Origin: Verrucomicrobiota bacterium
Lineage (GTDB): Bacteria; Verrucomicrobiota; Verrucomicrobiia; Limisphaerales; Palsa-1400
Length of the DNA stretch: 64,000 bases
Assembly: GCA_049510745.1 (NCBI GenBank)
Contig: JBEKYR010000004.1
Coordinates: forward strand, 1-64,000
Reading direction: 5' to 3'
The position numbers and the translations under genes are program-made. A model generated the notes under the pieces. That model searched no databases, was not told the origin of the DNA, and saw only the letters and a program-made list of their open reading frames with translations. Positions 12,911 to 61,119 of the stretch are shown here, piece after piece. The stretch's first letter is position 1, and each line of letters starts with the position of its first letter.

Positions 12911-12960
12911 GGTTTGATTTAGTCTGATTTAGTCTGATTTGGTTTGATTTGGTTTGATTT
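12911..12960. repeat. Five tandem 10-mers (GGTTTGATTT / AGTCTGATTT)
   Basis: Read directly from the sequence. Confidence 0.9.
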
Positions 12961-26094: not shown

Positions 26095-26223
26095 CGAAAT
26101 CCGAATGTCTAAAGAATGCTCAAATGACTCAATGACCAAGATGGACCAACACCGTCGTCCTGGCTTCGTCATTAGGAATTCGTCATTCTTTCGTCATTGG
26201 TGCTTCGTCATTAGTCATTTTCC
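26079..26223. repeat. Imperfect palindrome built of AATGAC(G) / (C)GTCATT heptamer-type repeats
   Basis: GGAAAATGACGAATGACGAA ... TTCGTCATTAGTCATTTTCC (19/20 complementary ends). Confidence 0.8.
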
Positions 26224-53123: not shown

Positions 53124-53705
53124 TTATTCCCAGTCCCACTCCTCGAACAATTCCGAGATCGGGAAGCGGAAGCCGGGCAGGAGGTCTTCGCCCTCCAGAA
53201 AACCGCCGCTGCCAATCAGTTTGCGGTCGGTGAGGGAGCGGCAGACTTCCACGTGCCGGGCTTCGGGATCGATGATCCACGCCAGACGCGCGCCGCTGCT
53301 GAAGAAATCCTTCAATCGGTCGTCGATCTCGCCGCGCGTGTTGCCGGGCGAAAGAATCTCCACCGCCAGATCGGGCGCGCCGGGAAAGAAACGGCGCGTC
53401 GAGCGCCGGAATCCCAGGGACGCCAAACGCGCCCGGCTGACAAAGGAAATGTCCGGCGCGCGGCAGTTGCGATTGTTCATCCAGAAGCCGGTGCTGGAAT
53501 CCAGGACCGCCCCCAGGCGGCCGGATCGGACAAAAGTAAGAAGCGCCGCCGACAGCCGCGTGCAGATGTCGCCATGAAAGAAATCATTCTTGGGGCTCAT
53601 AACCAGTTCGCCATCGACAATTTCGTGGATGAAGCCGTCTTCGGGCAAAGCCTGCACCTCGGCCTCGGTCCAGAGTTTTTTCGGCGCTTCAACCACAGCG
53701 TTCAT
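53124..53705 (-). CDS. Uma2-family (DUF820) putative endonuclease
   Basis: EIVDGEL.MSP...H, RAPDISF, APDLAVEILSP, W.IDP, LLPGF. Confidence 0.92.
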   Translation of the reverse strand: MNAVVEAPKKLWTEAEVQALPEDGFIHEIVDGELVMSPKNDFFHGDICTRLSAALLTFVRSGRLGAVLDSSTGFWMNNRNCRAPDISFVSRARLASLGFRRSTRRFFPGAPDLAVEILSPGNTRGEIDDRLKDFFSSGARLAWIIDPEARHVEVCRSLTDRKLIGSGGFLEGEDLLPGFRFPISELFEEWDWE

Positions 53706-53744
53706 GGAAGCATATTACGAGCGTTGGCGGCGGCTGTCGAGACT

Positions 53745-53800
53745 AACCGCGCCAGTCGCGCCAGTCGCTGAAGACTTCGTCGCGCATGAGGGTGGCGGCC
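53745..53800. repeat. 56-bp direct repeat, distal copy of the DUF2252 gene 3' end (identical to 54589-54644)
   Basis: AACCGCGCCAGTCGCGCCAGTCGCTGAAGACTTCGTCGCGCATGAGGGTGGCGGCC present twice. Confidence 0.95.
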
Positions 53801-53826
53801 CGCGAATCCGGCCATCGCCAATAACA

Positions 53827-54258
53827 CTACGGCGTAACGCATTGGAATGCGCCCAGGACCGCAAAATCATTCGCGTTTGTCGTGAGCAATGAATTGATTC
53901 CAGCGCTCCGGTAAGTCGCGGCCAGCAGTGTGTCCAGTATTCGCTTTCGTCCCAGACCGTGGCCGCGATGCCAGACAAAGAATTGTGCCATCGCGGCGTC
54001 GCCGGGAATGGTGTGTGTTACCTCGTGGGCAGTCCACCATTTTTGCGCCAAATCGCGCGCCGCCTCCATGCTAAGTGGCGCGGCAAACCGCTTGGCGTCA
54101 GTGACCACGTGGATAAACTCGGCCAGCACTTGCGGAGCCAGCGCGAATTCGTCCCCTGCGGCAACAAGTGCGGCGATTTTCGCCCGCGCGGCTTGATGAC
54201 TGGTGTGCTCTACAACTTCGGCGGCGACCAGGAATCCGGTGTCGATCCCGTGATTCAC
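53827..54258 (-). CDS. vapC: VapC-family PIN toxin
   Basis: GIDTGFL, PQVLAEF, ILDTLLAAT, LLTTNANDF; GTGA overlap with the upstream gene. Confidence 0.88.
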   Translation of the reverse strand: MNHGIDTGFLVAAEVVEHTSHQAARAKIAALVAAGDEFALAPQVLAEFIHVVTDAKRFAAPLSMEAARDLAQKWWTAHEVTHTIPGDAAMAQFFVWHRGHGLGRKRILDTLLAATYRSAGINSLLTTNANDFAVLGAFQCVTP

Positions 54259-54476
54259 TGGCGCCCTTCCAGCATCTCACCCAGCAAGTCGTCATCCGGG
54301 CTGAACGGACGAATCACCCGGCCAAGACTCACCGGTGCGATGTCCAGCACACTATGCGGCAAAGCGCTCTTGAGTCGCCGGCGGCGCATCCGCTCGGAAA
54401 GCCACTCGAACAAGCTCTCCTGTTGCTCCAGCGGCAGGGCATCGGCAGCCTGTTCGATTTCAATCAAAGTTGACAT
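54255..54476 (-). CDS. Putative antitoxin (VapB-like)
   Basis: 73 aa, MSTLIEIEQAADALP (similar N-terminus to 51431-51619), acidic tail. Confidence 0.78.
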   Translation of the reverse strand: MSTLIEIEQAADALPLEQQESLFEWLSERMRRRRLKSALPHSVLDIAPVSLGRVIRPFSPDDDLLGEMLEGRQ

Positions 54477-54586
54477 ACCTTTTTTATACGCAAAAACCGG
54501 CGATTTTCAAGCAAAATGCCGTGAGGAATTCTGACGCCTCAATCCATTTCGCGGCAAACGCCATTCAACTCCAGTCCGATGCCACA

Positions 54587-55648
54587 TCAACCGCGCCAGT
54601 CGCGCCAGTCGCTGAAGACTTCGTCGCGCATGAGGGTGGCGGCCTGGAAAAGCCAGCGGGGCGGCTTGCGCTTGAGGTCCTGGCGCAGGGCCGCGCCCTG
54701 GCCGCTGCCCAGATGAATGTTGGCGGTTTCCCAGCCCATCGAATAAAGCAGTTTCAATTCGTCGCGCTCCTCCGGCAGATGGCTTAGCTCCAGCCGGAAA
54801 CAATCGGGCGAGAGGCGGCGCACGATCCAGGCGCCTTTGATCTTCCAATAAGGGTCCTGCGCGCGGACGGCGCGGCGCAGAATGTCCTCAAGGTAAAGAG
54901 GGCCGGCGGTTTTGCCCTCGGCGAAGAGGCAGGCGGAGAGGGCCCAGGCCTTGGCTTCGCGCGCCAGCCAGCCGCCCTGCCAGACGGCCAATCCCAGGTA
55001 GCGCTCGCGCCCCAGGCTGCCCAAACCCGCGATGCGATGGGCGAAACGCAATTGAATTTTCTGGTCCGGCAGAATGGAACGAATGGCCGGGAGGACAGTC
55101 GAAGGCAGGCGGGTTTTGAGCGGGGCCAGGCGGCGAAGCTTTTTCCAGAACTTCTCCGGTTCCCGCAGGCGGTGCCGCACCATGGCGCGCAACGCCGTGC
55201 CGCGATCCACCAGGACAAACGGCGCGCCGCCCACTTTGACGGCGTCCTGGTAGCCGCGCAGAATTTCCGCCGCGGCGTCTTCGGGCGAGACGTCCAGTTG
55301 TTCGACGGCCAGAAAGGCGCTGGCGGCCAGGCGGATCAAATCGTTGGTGTAGGGCAGCGGGCTGGCTTCGTCAAAATCGTTGACGCCCCAGACCAGGCGG
55401 CCTTCGGCGTCGCGCCAGGTGCCGAAATTTTCGACGTGCAGGTCGCCGACGGAGAGGACGCGGGGGCCTTCGCAAAATTTGGGGCACGCCTGCGGCCAGA
55501 CCTGCGCCCAACGGTAATAGGTGGCGCGAAGGAAGAAAAACGGGTCCGCGCGCATGCGCTGATGCTTGAGGAGCAGGTCGCCTTTGAGGAGACGGATTTG
55601 GCGGCCGAGCCAGGCTTCGTATCGGATGGTGGATTGGCGGATGTTCAT
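54587..55648 (-). CDS. DUF2252-family protein (kinase-like fold)
   Basis: RM..DPFFFLRAT, GDLHVENFG, VNDFDEA, DLIRLAAS, AGLGSLG. Confidence 0.88.
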   Translation of the reverse strand: MNIRQSTIRYEAWLGRQIRLLKGDLLLKHQRMRADPFFFLRATYYRWAQVWPQACPKFCEGPRVLSVGDLHVENFGTWRDAEGRLVWGVNDFDEASPLPYTNDLIRLAASAFLAVEQLDVSPEDAAAEILRGYQDAVKVGGAPFVLVDRGTALRAMVRHRLREPEKFWKKLRRLAPLKTRLPSTVLPAIRSILPDQKIQLRFAHRIAGLGSLGRERYLGLAVWQGGWLAREAKAWALSACLFAEGKTAGPLYLEDILRRAVRAQDPYWKIKGAWIVRRLSPDCFRLELSHLPEERDELKLLYSMGWETANIHLGSGQGAALRQDLKRKPPRWLFQAATLMRDEVFSDWRDWRG

Positions 55649-55670: not shown

Positions 55671-58316
55671 TCAAGAATCGAGGGCGTCCAGAGCGGCGCG
55701 GGTCTGAGCGCGTTTGGACTGCCAATCGGCCAAGCGCTGCTCGTGCTCCTGCAAGACGGTCGCCGGCACTTTCCGGGCGAAGTCCGGGTTGGCCAGCTTG
55801 GTTTTCACCTTCTCGATTTCCGCGTCGATTTTTTGAAGTTCCCTGGTCAGGCGGGCTTTTTCCGCCTCGGCATTGACCAGGCCGGCCAGGGGGATGAATA
55901 GTTTTCCGCCGAAACCGGGATGAATCACCGGCTCGCCTTTGGAGGGCTGGTATTCCGGGCGATGCTCAATGCTTTCAGCCCCGGCCAGCAATTGGATCAC
56001 TTCCTTCTCCGCGGGATCGATGTCCGCGGGGGCGTGATAAACAATTTTGAGCCGCTGGCCGGCCGGGATGCGGTATTGGGCGCGGATGTTCCTGATGGCG
56101 ATGACCAGCTTCTGTCTGTCATCTATAAAACTGAGGACGTCTTCGGAAAGGAGGTAGTGGGCCTTGAAATCGGCGTCGAAGGGTTTGGGCCACGGCGCGA
56201 ACACAATCGTCCGGCCGCCCTGGTCGTCCGGCATGTCCTCGGCGTAACCCATCCCGTGCCACAATTCCTCCGTGATGAAAGGCAGGAAGGGATGGAACAG
56301 GCGCAGCGTGTGGGACAGAATAAAATCCATCACCGCCAGCGTGTTCTGTTTGCGCGCGGCGTCGGCGCCCTGCAGCACGGCCTTGCTCGCCTCGACATAC
56401 CAGTCGCAATACTCGCTCCAGAAGAAGCGGTAGAGAGTGGCGGCGGCGTCGCTGAATTTGTATTCGGCGAAGGCGGCGTCCAATTCGCGGATGGCGGCGT
56501 CGAGGCGGAGGAGAATCCAGCGGTCGTCGCGCGTGAGGAGGGGGGGCGCGATTTCGCCCTGGACCTGGCCGGCCTGGAGTTGGCGGAAGCGGCAGGCGTT
56601 CCAGAGTTTGTTGCAGAAATTGCGGCCCAGCTCGACCTGCTGTTCGTCATAAAGAATGTCCTGTCCCAGGGGCGCGGAGCGCATGACGCCAAAGCGCAGG
56701 GCGTCGGCGCCGTAACGGCCGATGAGGTCGAGGGGATCGGGCGAGTTGCCCAGGCTCTTGGACATTTTGCGGCCCTGCTTGTCACGAATAATTCCGGTGA
56801 AATAGACGTTGCGGAAAGGCGGCTCTCCCGTGAATTCGTAGCCCGCCATGATCATGCGCGCGACCCAGAAGAAAATGATGTCCGGGCCGGTGACCAGGTC
56901 GGTTGTAGGATAGAACTTTTGCAGCGTGTCCGTCTGGTCGGGCCAGCCCATGGTGGCGAAGGGCCAGAGCCAGGAGCTGAACCAGGTGTCGAGCACGTCC
57001 GGGTCCTGCCGCCAGCCGTCACCGGGAGAATCGATTTGACAGCGGGTCTCGCCGTCCTTGTACCAGACGGGCAGGCGATGGCCCCACCAGAGCTGGCGGG
57101 AGATGCACCAATCCTTGATGTTGACCATCCAATGGAGGTAGGTCTTGCTCCAGCGTTCCGGGTGGAAGCGAATCTGGCCGTTCTCGACCGCGGCGGTCGA
57201 GGCGGCGACCGACGGGTAGCGCAAAAACCATTGCTCGCTCAGATACGGTTCGATGGGCACGTGGCTGCGCTGACTGTGGCCGACGCGATGAACGTATTTT
57301 TCCGTCTTGAGCAGCAGGCCGAGGCTTTCCATTTTCGCCAGCACGGCTTTGCGCGCCGCCATGCGGTCCAATCCGGCAAACTCCGCGCCCGCCTCCTGGG
57401 TCATTGAGCCGTCGGGGGCGATGACGACCGTCAGGGGCAGATGATGGCGCAGCGCCATTTCGTAGTCGGCGGGATCGTGGGCGGGGGTGACTTTGACACA
57501 GCCGGCGCCGAATTTCGGATCGACCAATTCGTCGAGGATGATGGGAATGGGCTTGTTGCGGAGGGGCAGCAGGACCTTCTTGCCGCGCAAATTCTCATAA
57601 CGCGGGTCCTGCGGATGAACGGCCACGGCTTCGTCGCCCAGCATCGTTTCCGGCCGTGTCGTGGCCACGACGACAAAGCCCTCCTCGCCGACGAGGGGAT
57701 ATTTGAAGTACCACAAATGCCCGTGCTGCTCGACCATTTCGACCTCCTCGTCGGACAAGGCGGTGCGGGCGGCGGGGTCCCAATTGACCATGCGCTTGCC
57801 GCGATAGATCAAGGACTTGTTGTAGAGATCGACGAAGACGCCCTGGACGCAACGGCTGTAGGCGGGGTCCATGGTGAAGCGCTCGCGCGTCCAATCGCAG
57901 GAAGCGCCCAGCATGACAAGCTGCTGAATGATGATGCCGCCGTGCTTTTCCTTCCATTCCCAGACCTTCTCCAGAAGTTTTTCGCGGCCGAGGTCCTCGC
58001 GGGACTTCATCAGGCCCTGCTGGCGCAAATTCTTCTCGACAACGGCCTGGGTGGCGATGCCGGCGTGATCGGTGCCGGGCAGCCACAACACTTCAAACCC
58101 CCTCATGCGGGCCAGGCGGGCCAGGATGTCCTGGATGGTGTTGTTGAGGACGTGCCCGAGGGTGAGCACGCCGGTGACGTTGGGCGGCGGGATGACGATG
58201 GAATAGGCCGGCTTGGCCGAGCGCGGATGGGCGACAAAGCACTTTTGGTCGAGCCAAAACCGGCGCCATTTTTCCTCGACGGCGCGGGGTTCGTAGGCTT
58301 TTGGGATTTCGGACAT
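55671..58316 (-). CDS. valS: Valine--tRNA ligase
   Basis: PPPNVTG.LTLGH, DHAGIATQ, WCISRQLWWGH, DVLDTWFSS, KMSKS, C-terminal coiled coil. Confidence 0.98.
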   Translation of the reverse strand: MSEIPKAYEPRAVEEKWRRFWLDQKCFVAHPRSAKPAYSIVIPPPNVTGVLTLGHVLNNTIQDILARLARMRGFEVLWLPGTDHAGIATQAVVEKNLRQQGLMKSREDLGREKLLEKVWEWKEKHGGIIIQQLVMLGASCDWTRERFTMDPAYSRCVQGVFVDLYNKSLIYRGKRMVNWDPAARTALSDEEVEMVEQHGHLWYFKYPLVGEEGFVVVATTRPETMLGDEAVAVHPQDPRYENLRGKKVLLPLRNKPIPIILDELVDPKFGAGCVKVTPAHDPADYEMALRHHLPLTVVIAPDGSMTQEAGAEFAGLDRMAARKAVLAKMESLGLLLKTEKYVHRVGHSQRSHVPIEPYLSEQWFLRYPSVAASTAAVENGQIRFHPERWSKTYLHWMVNIKDWCISRQLWWGHRLPVWYKDGETRCQIDSPGDGWRQDPDVLDTWFSSWLWPFATMGWPDQTDTLQKFYPTTDLVTGPDIIFFWVARMIMAGYEFTGEPPFRNVYFTGIIRDKQGRKMSKSLGNSPDPLDLIGRYGADALRFGVMRSAPLGQDILYDEQQVELGRNFCNKLWNACRFRQLQAGQVQGEIAPPLLTRDDRWILLRLDAAIRELDAAFAEYKFSDAAATLYRFFWSEYCDWYVEASKAVLQGADAARKQNTLAVMDFILSHTLRLFHPFLPFITEELWHGMGYAEDMPDDQGGRTIVFAPWPKPFDADFKAHYLLSEDVLSFIDDRQKLVIAIRNIRAQYRIPAGQRLKIVYHAPADIDPAEKEVIQLLAGAESIEHRPEYQPSKGEPVIHPGFGGKLFIPLAGLVNAEAEKARLTRELQKIDAEIEKVKTKLANPDFARKVPATVLQEHEQRLADWQSKRAQTRAALDALDS

Positions 58317-58374
58317 AAATTTTCAACCACGAATGGACACAGACATATATTTTCAACCACGGATGGACACGGAT

Positions 58375-58539
58375 TCACACGGATAAAGCCAGTGAGTTCT
58401 CATATATTTTTTCGTTAAGTCCGTGCCCGATCTCGTTAAGCACCTCGAACGCAAAGCCAATAAGTTTCTCCGTTTCGGCTTTGAAAATCAATTTTGATTC
58501 GCGGCTGCTGCTTAAGTTCTGTCTTTCATCCGTGTCCAT
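58375..58539 (-). pseudogene. Truncated GxxExxY copy (N-terminal third, 54 aa)
   Basis: Near-identical to the 5' part of 58636-59046; lacks about 260 bp containing the catalytic core. Confidence 0.85.
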
Positions 58540-58635
58540 CTGTGTCTATCCGTGGTTAAATTGTTTTTTTCATCAGGCGATATTCCATGACATAAATTTT
58601 CAACCACGGATGGACACGGGTTCACACGGATAAAG

Positions 58636-59046
58636 CTAGAGCACCACACGCTCCCATTCCATTCGGGCGCGCTTAAAATTCACGATTAACCCCACCCGCA
58701 ATTTGGAGATGCGGAGATAATTCAGCATCTGGCCGCGTTCATGGTCGGTAATGCAATCAATGACTTTGGTGTCCACAATCACCGAACCAAAAGCGATAAG
58801 GTCTGGAATGAATTCGCCGACTTGAACACCCCGGAAACACACCGGGAATCTTCTTTGCTGGTCGAACGCAATCTCGTTTTGCTTGAACAAAACCACCAGT
58901 GAGTTCTCATATATTTTTTCGATAAGTCCGTGCCCGATCTCGTTAAGCACCTCGAACGCAAAACCAATAAGCTTCTCCGTTTCGGCTTTGAGAATCAGTT
59001 TTGATTCCCGGCTGCCGCTCAAGTCCGGTCTTTCATCCGTGTCCAT
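58636..59046 (-). CDS. GxxExxY family protein (PD-(D/E)xK-like nuclease)
   Basis: GLIEKIY signature, FIPDLI...IVDTK, QMLNYL, GLIVNF; the ATG lies inside the inverted repeat. Confidence 0.93.
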   Translation of the reverse strand: MDTDERPDLSGSRESKLILKAETEKLIGFAFEVLNEIGHGLIEKIYENSLVVLFKQNEIAFDQQRRFPVCFRGVQVGEFIPDLIAFGSVIVDTKVIDCITDHERGQMLNYLRISKLRVGLIVNFKRARMEWERVVL

Positions 59047-59105
59047 CTGTGTCTATCCGTGGTTAAATTATTCTTTCATCAGGCGATACTCCGTGACATA
59101 AATTT

Positions 59106-59291
59106 TCAACCACGGATGGACACGGATTCACACGGATAAAACCGGTGAGTTCTCATATATTCTTCGTTAAGTCCGTGCCCAATCTCGTTAAGCACCTCGA
59201 ACGCAAAACCGATAAGTTTTTCCGTTTCGGCTTTGAGAATCAGTTTTGATTCCCGGCTGCTGCTCAAGTCCGGTCTTTCACCCGTGTCCAT
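59106..59291 (-). pseudogene. Truncated, frameshifted GxxExxY copy
   Basis: Same internal deletion plus a 1-nt loss in the EKIY codons. Confidence 0.85.
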
Positions 59292-59373
59292 CTGTGTCTA
59301 TCCGTGGTTAAATTATTTTTTCCATCAGGCGATACTCCGTGACATAAATTTTCAACCACGGATGGACACGGAT

Positions 59374-59538
59374 TCACACGGATAAAACCGGTGAGTTCTC
59401 ATATATTTTTTCGTTAAGTCCGTGCCCGATCTCGTTAAGCACCTCGAACGCAAAGCCAATAAGTTTCTCCGTTTCGGCTTTGAGAATCAATTTTGATTCG
59501 CGGCTGCTGCTCAAGTTCGGTCTTTCATCCGTGTCCAT
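59374..59538 (-). pseudogene. Truncated GxxExxY copy (54 aa)
   Basis: MDTDERPNLSSSRESKLILKAETEKLIGFAFEVLNEIGHGLNEKIYENSPVLSV-stop. Confidence 0.85.
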
Positions 59539-59559
59539 CTGTGTCTATCCGTGGTTAAA

Positions 59560-61119
59560 TTATTTTTTCATCAGGCGATATTCCATGGAATCGACCAGGG
59601 CCTGCAAACTGGCCTCGATGATGTTGGCGCTGACGCCGACGGTGCCCCATTCCTCGGTCCCGTCGCTGGACTGAATGAGGACGCGGGTCTTGGCGGCGGT
59701 GCCGGCGGTCGAGTCAAGGATACGGACCTTGTAATCGGTCAGGCGAATGCGCTTGAGCTGCGGATAGAAACCGGCCAGGGCGGCACGCAAGGCGGAGTCC
59801 AGGGCGTTGATCGGGCCGTCGCCCTCGGCGACGGTGTGGGCGGACTTGCCCTCGACCCGGACCTTGACCGTGGCCTCGCAAATCGAGGAGCCGCCGTCGC
59901 GCCGCATCGAGACGTGATAGACGGTCACCTCGAACGGCAGCGTTTGGTGATGGAGTATCCTGTGGATGAGAACGGCGAGCGAGCCGCCCGCGGCCTCGAA
60001 TTCGTAGCCCTGGTGTTCGAGGGTTTTGACGCGTGCCAGGATTTCCTTCAACTCCGGTGCGTCGTCGGCCAGGCGGATGCCCAACTCGCGGGCCTTGAGG
60101 AGAATGTTGCTGCGGCCGGCCAGATCGCTGATGAGCACGTTGCGCGCATTGCCGACGGATGCCGGGTCGATGTGCTCGTAACTGCCAAAAATTTTCTGGA
60201 CCGCGTTGACGTGCATGCCGGCCTTGTGCGAAAAGGCGGCCGAGCCGACCCACGGCTGGCGCGGGCTGTGGCGGAAGTTGGCGATCTCATCCACGAATTG
60301 CGACAGGTCCTTGAGCAGCGGCAGCGAAGCGGCCGGCACGCACGTTTTGCGCAATTTGAACGCGATGTTAGGAATGACGCTGGTCAGGTTGCAATTGCCG
60401 GTGCGTTCGCCGTAACCATTGATGGTGCCCTGCACCTGCGTGGCGCCCGCCTCCAGCGCCGCCAGGGCGTTGGCCACGCCGAGGCCGATGTCATCGTGAG
60501 TGTGGATGCCGATGCGCCCCTTGAGCGCGGCGCGGGCGGCGCGGGTGATGGCGGCGATTTCGCCGGGCAACCTGCCGCCGTTGGTGTCGCACAAAACGAC
60601 CCTGTCGGCGCCGGCGTTTTCCGCGGCCTGCCAGGTGGCCAGCGCGTAGGCGTTGTTGTCCTTGAACCCGTCGAAAGCGTGCTCGGCGTCATAAACGACG
60701 AATTTTCCGTGCTGCTTGAGGAACCGGACCGTGTCGGCGATCATGGCCAGGTTTTCATCCGGCGTGGTGCGGAGGACTTTGCGGACATGCAACAGCCAGG
60801 TCTTGCCGAAAATAGTGACGACAGGCGTATGCGCTTCGAGGAGGAGCCGGACCTGGTCATCGGCGGCCACGGCGACATCCTTGCGGCGGGTCGAGCCGAA
60901 GGCGGCCAGTTGGGCGCGCCTGAATTTTTTGCGTTTGGCCTCGTGGAAAAACTCGATGTCCTTGGGATTGGAGCCGGGCCAGCCGCCCTCGATGAAATGG
61001 ACGCCGAAGGCATCGAGCCGTTCGGCGATGCGCAACTTATCGGTGAGGGAAAAGTTAACGCCTTCGCCCTGGCTGCCATCGCGCAAGGTCGTATCGTAGA
61101 TTTCGACATCGGGTTTCAT
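59560..61119 (-). CDS. cimA: Citramalate synthase
   Basis: YDTTLRDGSQGEG, IEGGWPGSNPKD, YDAEH.FDG, LCDTNGG, HTHDD, GYGERTGN, YEHIDP..VGN; LeuA-type regulatory C-terminus. Confidence 0.93.
   Translation of the reverse strand: MKPDVEIYDTTLRDGSQGEGVNFSLTDKLRIAERLDAFGVHFIEGGWPGSNPKDIEFFHEAKRKKFRRAQLAAFGSTRRKDVAVAADDQVRLLLEAHTPVVTIFGKTWLLHVRKVLRTTPDENLAMIADTVRFLKQHGKFVVYDAEHAFDGFKDNNAYALATWQAAENAGADRVVLCDTNGGRLPGEIAAITRAARAALKGRIGIHTHDDIGLGVANALAALEAGATQVQGTINGYGERTGNCNLTSVIPNIAFKLRKTCVPAASLPLLKDLSQFVDEIANFRHSPRQPWVGSAAFSHKAGMHVNAVQKIFGSYEHIDPASVGNARNVLISDLAGRSNILLKARELGIRLADDAPELKEILARVKTLEHQGYEFEAAGGSLAVLIHRILHHQTLPFEVTVYHVSMRRDGGSSICEATVKVRVEGKSAHTVAEGDGPINALDSALRAALAGFYPQLKRIRLTDYKVRILDSTAGTAAKTRVLIQSSDGTEEWGTVGVSANIIEASLQALVDSMEYRLMKK

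Follow-up and report, generated by a model that had tools for sequence, protein, structure and literature searches.

The closest published system to the locus described here is Ssn/NTS, in which a small GIY-YIG nuclease gene is located between hairpin repeats (NTS/SRM) (Chenal et al. 2025, PMC11893778). According to the accessible part of that paper, the SsnA enzyme acts on single-stranded DNA (ssDNA), with its cut in the variable flank a few bases away from the hairpin, and lowers the integration of NTS-flanked DNA. For repetitive extragenic palindromic (REP) sequences and bacterial interspersed mosaic elements (BIMEs) with TnpA-REP, a model of enzyme-primed local amplification has been described (PMC3333891, PMC3733652). 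Here, we analyzed a 64,000-nt stretch of DNA from a Verrucomicrobiota bacterium (GCA_049510745.1, contig JBEKYR010000004.1, positions 1 to 64,000), referred to as the window, in which a gene for a GxxExxY protein is boxed by inverted repeat arms and repeated, mostly in truncated form, between the host genes cimA and valS. The family of this protein, PF13366, is described in the available text of PMC3424549 as having an unknown function and multiple transfers; bioRxiv 10.1101/2021.01.26.428298 contains a single passing mention of GxxExxY and PMC5704561 provides background on Cas4. No description of armed GxxExxY cassettes, of their mobility, or of their arrays was found in the main texts of the open-licence PMC and bioRxiv literature, to which most subscription papers do not belong, and the supplements of PMC11893778 could list such genes. 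Comparison with related genomes indicates that a repeat-armed, so far undescribed cassette with a putative nuclease gene entered this site horizontally, at a position where it is also present in a distant host.

On the minus strand, the cimA-valS interval contains four head-to-tail units (U1 to U4) of 246, 246, 506, and 247 nt and a 30-nt stub. Each unit begins with the last 8 codons of cimA and its stop (27 nt), followed by a left arm that includes the ATG, the coding sequence, and the inverted arm, and each is closed by an AT-rich spacer plus 5 nt from the start of valS. The features are as follows.

59560..61116, minus strand: cimA (citramalate synthase), the host gene upstream of the array (TIGR00977, 709 bits, above cut-off); its last 27 nt double as the start of U1.
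59341..59586, minus strand: U1, with the true cimA tail, left arm, internally deleted gene, right arm, and a copy of the first 5 nt of valS.
59538-59374, minus strand: open reading frame (ORF) of 54 aa in U1.
59095..59340, minus strand: U2, with a variant cimA-tail copy and a deleted, frameshifted gene.
59291-59106, minus strand: ORF of 61 aa in U2.
58589..59094, minus strand: U3, the complete cassette with copies of both host-gene ends.
58636..59046, minus strand: intact GxxExxY gene, 136 aa, inside U3 (TIGR04256, PF13366, alignment, model, and fold searches).
59035..59065, minus strand: left arm of U3, three 10-mers including the ATG (copies at 59527-59557, 59280-59310, and 58528-58558).
58600..58631, minus strand: right (inverted) arm of U3 (copies at 59352-59383, 59106-59137, and 58353-58384).
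58342..58588, minus strand: U4, with a cimA-tail copy, deleted gene, right arm, and valS-start copy.
58539-58375, minus strand: ORF of 54 aa in U4.
58312..58341, minus strand: stub, in which the outer right arm and its spacer are repeated once more, ending in the true first 5 nt of valS.
55671..58316, minus strand: valS (valine-tRNA ligase), the host gene downstream, intact (NF004349, 1133 bits).

An earlier note on this DNA had described four head-to-tail units carrying host-gene ends, and both the coordinates and the unit structure agree with it. It was also right about the single full-length gene in U3, about the 30-bp stub that re-duplicates the valS start (58341-58312; Tandem Repeats Finder period 30), and about the units not being identical, as they differ by 7-19 substitutions per ~246 nt. 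The shared deletion of ~260 bp that it reported is present (260 bp, 58895-58636, missing from U1, U2, and U4 each), but its statement that the GxxExxY helix is kept in the truncated copies holds for U1 and U4 only, since a 1-nt deletion inside the motif shifts the frame in U2. Likewise, the cimA tail is indeed copied in the units, but a 1-nt insertion places the copied stop out of frame in U2 and U4. Both duplications, that of the large unit and that of the stub, stop at one base, 5 nt into valS and 14 nt past the last GTGG of the right arm, and this shared end is a candidate cut or stall point. The GC content of the array is 45%, compared to 62-63% in the flanking genes, and a short unit, when folded, has a z of -4.45 relative to shuffles. 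A scan of the region for sigma70-like promoters returned 0 sites, and Rfam at E<=1 returned nothing beyond sub-threshold miRNA hairpin matches.

Same-site gain or replacement of the cassette in distantly related hosts is the strongest signal, and it was overlooked in the earlier note. That note had suggested a search for empty sites, for which 40 relatives were surveyed, with cimA-valS adjacency resolved in 26. None of the 26 had a GxxExxY gene at this position; 18, including both same-genus genomes, had a spacer of 95 nt or less, and the other 8 contained other inserts. In the valS tree, the genome of the window (G000) falls in a 13-row clade (99/87), the other 12 members of which are GxxExxY-free at the site. 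Numbers with the prefix L denote loci used for comparison, and those with the prefix G denote genomes. Between G000 and L113, which occupies the same site, the GxxExxY gene is 90.9% identical (40/48 four-fold sites) and valS 77.1% identical (35/58 four-fold sites), and a host clade uniting the two is rejected (p-AU 2.8e-6). Diagnostic bases are host-type through the last cimA codons and host-type again from early valS, so the incoming tract would have consisted of the cassette and at most a few bases. On this sequence evidence, comparison shows the cassette in G000 to have been horizontally acquired, apparently replacing a short native cimA-valS spacer, with switch points no more than a few bases from the cimA stop and the valS start.

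Similar exchanges are apparent among other relatives. A total of 124 close loci was collected (44 genome, 80 metagenome, partly redundant), of which 42 are beside cimA or valS, 33 at sufB-sufC, 11 upstream of dxs, and others elsewhere; sufB, xseB, and HU were named by reading peptides, and sufC and dxs by scan. Identity between genes at different sites can be as high as 91-96%. There are also cases of the reverse: the flanks of L070, L094, and L146 are mostly 90-100% identical while their genes are 71-92% identical per bin, with values of 76-100% for the flanks and 75-84% for the gene in the pair L070/L094, although such pairs are non-independent and a faster-evolving gene can mimic the pattern. 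Across cimA-valS loci, gene similarity and host similarity are weakly correlated (rho 0.16, 351 non-independent pairs), and when host clades of the valS tree were tested on the gene tree, two were rejected (p 1e-7 and 0.016) and a third was not. A co-conversion gradient was not detected at flanking synonymous sites, where the bins are small (15-40 codons) and the true donors are not known. Single cassettes have no target-site duplication. Viral contigs, searched with 2 patterns, contained just 2 distant relatives and gave no evidence of a phage carrier.

Inserts of several kinds make the cimA-valS spacer a hot spot. L014, L019, L022, and L023 (G008, G037, G003, and G016) have related inserts of two ORFs there, which by eye resemble a PIN-type toxin-antitoxin pair; remnants of these are present in L021 and L024, and the spacer of L029 contains a gene-less hairpin of another word. 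A separate observation concerns L147, where two GxxExxY genes (83% and 78% identical to the query) are located ~1.6 kb apart in opposite orientation.

Gene and arms recur together. Each arm is an untagged array of three 10-mers, and a single arm is not self-palindromic. Both arms were found at 106 of the 120 close-relative loci with enough flank, and the unit moves between sites and hosts, which bears out that part of the earlier proposal in which the gene and its periodic arms form a mobile unit. The enrichment of inverted-repeat flanks that the same note had suggested examining is pronounced: they surround 81 of 106 distant GxxExxY loci and 0 of 196 control windows. The distant set comprises 110 of the 150 listed, best-scoring TIGR04256 matches (717 in total) that were off contig ends, minus 4 with short flanks, and 196 of 200 control windows were usable. 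The arm word is identical on the left and right in 79 of 80 loci and tracks the protein tree, requiring 20 changes compared to 67.6 when shuffled. Repeats without the gene are found as well, with about nine dispersed copies of ~150 bp in G000 that end in nearly the right arm of the cassette.

C10:98425, C13:16580, C2:123211, C2:149793, C20:34545, C4:85934, C54:10099, C60:11169, C7:15740: gene-less repeats in G000.

A 17-nt GC-rich conserved motif follows these gene-less repeats (54 genome-wide matches compared to 27 for the reversed control). G000 also encodes three more GxxExxY proteins (C6:176880-177221, C12:108594-108935, and C29:9094-9447), ~30% identical to that of the window, and the arms of each of the three genes are built from a different word.

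The 136-aa protein is a GxxExxY/PDDEXK_3 member (TIGR04256, 117 bits, cut-off 35; PF13366, 109 bits, cut-off 22). Its structure is predicted with a pLDDT of 91 and has no added DNA-binding domain. The top fold match was Cas4 SSO0001 (Foldseek E 3e-4; VIA Z 7.8 and rmsd 3.7 over 99 aligned residues), on a par with other PD-(D/E)xK folds, and a Z below 8 supports assignment at the superfamily level only. As modeled, the fold is PD-(D/E)xK, Cas4/RecB-like, and the protein is a predicted nuclease; the placement of GxxExxY in this superfamily by the earlier note agrees with the top fold matches, all of which are PD-(D/E)xK. Residues G40, E43, and Y46 are invariant in 41 aligned sequences, as are D82 and K94, and residue 92 is D in 105 of 107 and E in 2 of 107. 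The key residues E43, D82, D92-x-K94, and Q106-x3-Y110 presumably make up a RecB/Cas4-type active site. All of E43, D82, K94, Q106, and Y110 are kept, without stops, in 99 of 107 full-length relatives, and amino acid identity is 82.5% where identity at four-fold sites is 41%. Judged from these substitutions, the enzyme is under strong purifying selection and is maintained.

A PDB sequence search returned no match for the single protein and only E 0.5 and 1.5 for a profile. A GIY-YIG domain is not present, the whole-protein matches being PF13366 and TIGR04256 only, and domain scans found no transposase domain in the cassette protein. In a test for HUH Y1 transposases, the cassette gene was assigned to PF13366, and the 7 Y1_Tnp matches in G000 were all on other contigs. 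Iron-sulfur cysteines are a criterion for Cas4; no cysteine is among the invariant columns of the alignment.

Local amplification is exceptional in the close subfamily, where L071 and L135 have stacked arm units, and common in the wider family. Direct repeats of at least 45 nt accompany 28 of the 106 distant loci and are on the same side of the gene in 15; the other 13 were not counted, as their repeats are either side of the gene or copy the gene start behind it. Among the controls, 3 of the 196 windows had such repeats, as did 1 of 107 other hairpins in G000, which are shorter and non-periodic. The design of the window array is repeated in L055 (G094:C114:1-1400), where at least 5 tandem armed units of 190-200 bp surround one full GxxExxY unit, from which the short ones are derived by internal deletion. 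Host sequence is captured in other cases: 120 nt (40 codons) of thrS in L246 (G235:C18), ~17 nt of the tail of a thioesterase gene in L067, and 68 nt of the head of a sensor gene in L203. The first two came from the distant-locus sample, and L203 was found by pattern. In L246, L263 (G238:C174), and L270 (G159:C3), the GxxExxY 3' end with an arm or hairpin is repeated in tandem, and the copies extend as far as, or into, the beginning of the gene that follows (thrS for L246, PglX-like for L263). Microhomology at the junctions is 0-1 nt in G000, L263, and L270, and an imperfect 8 nt in L246.

We propose the following course of events. A cassette of ~470 bp, consisting of a nuclease gene boxed by inverted three-10-mer arms, would have been acquired horizontally in place of the native cimA-valS spacer, and a head-to-tail duplication in this lineage would have taken in 27 nt of cimA and 5 nt of valS as well. 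Since the cimA tail in the copies is of host type, the duplication is placed after the acquisition. A 260-bp deletion would then have arisen in one copy, and one intact and three dead units may have resulted from unequal crossing-over or gene conversion, in this presumed order. U1 and U4 have derived changes in common, and in U2 a 5' part of the U3 type is joined to a 3' part of the U1 type, a mosaic of the kind expected from unequal crossing-over. The enzyme, for its part, would bind its own arms in single-stranded form or once they have paired into a long stem and would nick or trim the variable flank at a short, loosely fixed distance, like SsnA beside NTS hairpins. A free 3' end could then prime re-copying to give BIME-like local arrays, and trimmed cassette DNA carrying a few bases of conserved gene ends could land in the orthologous spacer of another host. 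We assign a probability of slightly above 0.5 to this reading, in which the enzyme, acting on its own arms, both primes duplication and makes short-flanked DNA for uptake elsewhere. A bolder and more tentative extension is that GxxExxY cassettes are a class of minimal mobile element without a transposase, an integrase, or a site-recognising homing domain, in which a Cas4-like enzyme, by trimming or nicking next to its arms, would release the ~470-nt cassette plus a few adjoining gene bases, host machinery would anneal it into orthologous stop-start spacers of distantly related bacteria, and arrays would be the in-place product; both steps would then be recorded at this locus.

Several points weigh against an enzyme acting on its own arms. 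PD-(D/E)xK enzymes form no covalent tyrosine link, so the joining must come from host enzymes, and the fold match itself supports no assignment finer than superfamily. The agreement of arm word with protein is no proof of recognition, since the two travel together, and internally periodic arms are prone to slippage without any enzyme. The captured flanks range from ~1 to 120 nt, with no fixed cut offset found across arrays, and the stub duplication has a 4-nt microhomology, given one later C>T change (read from the sequence). A tandem cassette was seen in 0 of 98 distinct close-relative loci, which are those left of the 124 after removal of duplicates and of loci with <150 nt of flank (including L112, which is the same array), and the junction pattern was seen in 0 of 30 other family genomes. 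Nearby direct repeats were found at 0 of 12 arm-like hairpins from a stem screen of G000. A class-wide junction search, screened by script alone, pointed to 29 of 401 genomes, with 37 matches outside the listing. Two junction-pattern matches in coding sequence were set aside (G158 and G237). Of the 14 genomes with real tail-to-head arm junctions, 2 were without a TIGR04256 match (G102 and G138, 95% and 94% complete), which is near the background. GxxExxY genes (TIGR04256) are present in 209 of 251 sampled genomes of the order, with no match in 42 of 251. Finally, L113 is a proxy for the donor only, and a closer unsampled donor would make ordinary recombination sufficient.

The alternative that survives best is that of a mobile cassette from which the host, by accident, produced the array. 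Slippage or template switching of the nascent strand at periodic hairpin arms would give one tandem duplication, including any flank that happened to be copied, and RecA-dependent unequal crossing-over would expand it, with the nuclease uninvolved in amplification and the same-site swaps due to ordinary recombination between the genes on either side. The variable length of captured flanks, the microhomology at the stub, the junction-bearing genomes without a detectable gene, and the lack of tandem cassettes at the 98 close loci all fit this explanation, as does the mosaic structure of U2. However, only 1 of 107 ordinary hairpins in G000 has direct repeats nearby, though these hairpins are shorter and non-periodic, and homology is limited to 0-1 nt at three of the four junctions inspected. 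Nor does the accident account for a cassette gained at an empty site, with its switch points just a few bases away from where the genes end, or for the strong purifying selection on the catalytic residues. We regard the accident as possible but on the unlikely side.

A free-standing homing endonuclease could also reoccupy the same few sites, as is observed at cimA or valS (42/124), sufB-sufC (33), and dxs (11). It would cut the empty cimA/valS allele, break repair would copy the cassette, and the array would represent mis-repaired homing. Incongruence between gene and host is consistent with this, and PD-(D/E)xK homing endonucleases exist, such as I-Ssp6803I (PMC3424549). On the other hand, genes that are 91-96% identical at unrelated sites are hard to fit with recognition of a site by protein-DNA contacts, particularly for a 136-aa protein without an added DNA-binding domain. 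Neither do the arms find an explanation, and no co-conversion gradient was detected in the small bins of flanking synonymous sites, although co-conversion is described for such enzymes (PMC2988022). Homing is therefore an improbable source of this locus.

The array of four units and a stub is real. The assembly of G000 is a draft of 85 contigs, and an array made of strain variants of a single cassette strung together by the assembler would be in keeping with this, as with the fact that no piece spanning the whole array was among the Logan pieces listed. A separate JGI contig (L112) nevertheless runs from the end of U2 through U3, U4, and the stub into valS, and its alignment of 2522 nt has 2521 identities, 1 mismatch, and 1 gap. 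Read depth, the check that the earlier note had put forward, was taken from Logan contigs of 4 peat runs from 4 studies (X1, X2, X3, and X5; 32 of 1144 pieces listed). Depths for cimA, U3, U2, and U4 were 16.1, 16.3, 17.4, and 25.2 in X1; 13.4, 14.8, 14.2, and 18.5 in X2; and 5.4, 4.5, 5.8, and 5.3 in X3. Thus, U3- and U4-specific pieces were near the depth of unique cimA sequence in 4 of 4 runs and the U2-specific piece in 3 of 4, that is, at about single-copy depth and not at a fraction of it. Separate single-unit strains would have split the cimA depth among them, so the full depth of the unit pieces argues against such a mixture. One contig of X3 reads across the boundary between U1 and U2 with no differences. 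X5 has no cover over the U2-specific stretch and a U1-type 3' piece at 2x cimA depth, a pattern that suggests variation among strains. L112 or one of the peat runs may be the window's own source. Taken together, an assembly artefact is very unlikely.

The truncated units look like decaying by-products without function. Their first 44 codons, compared across the four units, have 8 synonymous and 7 non-synonymous changes, where ~34% of transitions are expected to be synonymous, and no selection on the truncated peptides was found in these counts. The suggestion in the earlier note that they might be inhibitory peptides thus finds no support, given also the frameshift in U2. The array itself is probably a by-product, though an informative one. 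That the units are retained for 54-aa peptides that would inhibit or titrate the nuclease, or for extra hairpins that would tune cimA-valS expression, is the least probable explanation of all, since the open 54-aa frames with a GxxExxY helix in U1 and U4 and the persistence of the array in populations of several peat studies are set against the U2 frameshift, substitution counts in which selection is not clear, a truncated partner at 0 of 98 close loci, and the lack of a sigma70-like promoter in the region.

Other features of the window were noted in passing. Near the contig end (155-242) are three identical 29-bp tandem copies, which could be an assembly effect, and at 12915-12960 and 26165-26212 are a 10-mer in 4.6 copies and a 25-mer in 1.9 copies, which may be the arms of other periodic elements. 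Downstream of valS (53124-55648) are a DUF2252 gene, a 73-aa ORF together with a PIN-domain gene, which is a probable toxin-antitoxin pair, and a Uma2 gene.

The unit of gene and repeats points to a poorly understood kind of selfish DNA. The locus makes the family testable: the arms provide a defined substrate, the shared end of the duplications provides a candidate region for the cut, and uptake at the same site and duplication in place can both be measured. If the process is driven by the enzyme, this would be a second nuclease fold, after the GIY-YIG of Ssn, paired with its own repeat family, a route of mobility that needs neither a transposase nor long homology, and possibly a 136-aa structure- or sequence-specific ssDNA tool. 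If the enzyme is not the driver, the array would be an ordinary scar on a still undescribed mobile cassette.

Compared with known systems, the cassette most resembles Ssn in having a small, single-domain nuclease gene, hairpin repeats on both sides, repeats that also occur without the gene, and family-wide pairing of enzyme and repeat. Unlike Ssn (GIY-YIG, cd10448), its enzyme is PD-(D/E)xK, and while NTS are short semi-palindromes, each arm of the cassette is a periodic array of three words, and the two arms pair with one another across the entire gene, which takes its ATG from the left arm. Same-site swaps and flank-inclusive arrays are seen for the cassette, and none are reported for Ssn in the accessible part of PMC11893778. 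With REPtrons, RAYTs, and TIRtrons, it shares a nuclease gene within inverted repeats, gene-less derivatives, and tandem arrays of varying number. The analogy to RAYT/REPIN drawn in the earlier note therefore holds for the layout but not for the enzyme, which has a different fold from the HUH tyrosine transposase of RAYT and its strand transfer. Moreover, REPs are palindromes of 20-40 nt tagged with GTAG or CGTC (PMC3733652) and REPtrons occur at one locus and are apparently immobile as a unit (PMC3333891), whereas the arms of the cassette are untagged and the cassette moves between sites and hosts. Like the T4 seg and mob free-standing homing endonucleases (PMC2988022), it is an intergenic nuclease gene with recurrent orthologous sites and a patchy, host-incongruent distribution; unlike them, it has inverted arms, near-identical genes at unrelated sites, and no separate DNA-binding domain. 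It differs from Cas4 in having no CRISPR context in the region examined, where its neighbors are cimA and valS, and no conserved Fe-S cysteines. An insertion sequence (IS) or miniature inverted-repeat transposable element (MITE) was considered and rejected, as there is no transposase domain and no duplicated target and the native spacer was apparently replaced. The enzyme that defines Ssn, RAYT, or IS is in each case absent from the cassette, which is therefore filed under none of them.

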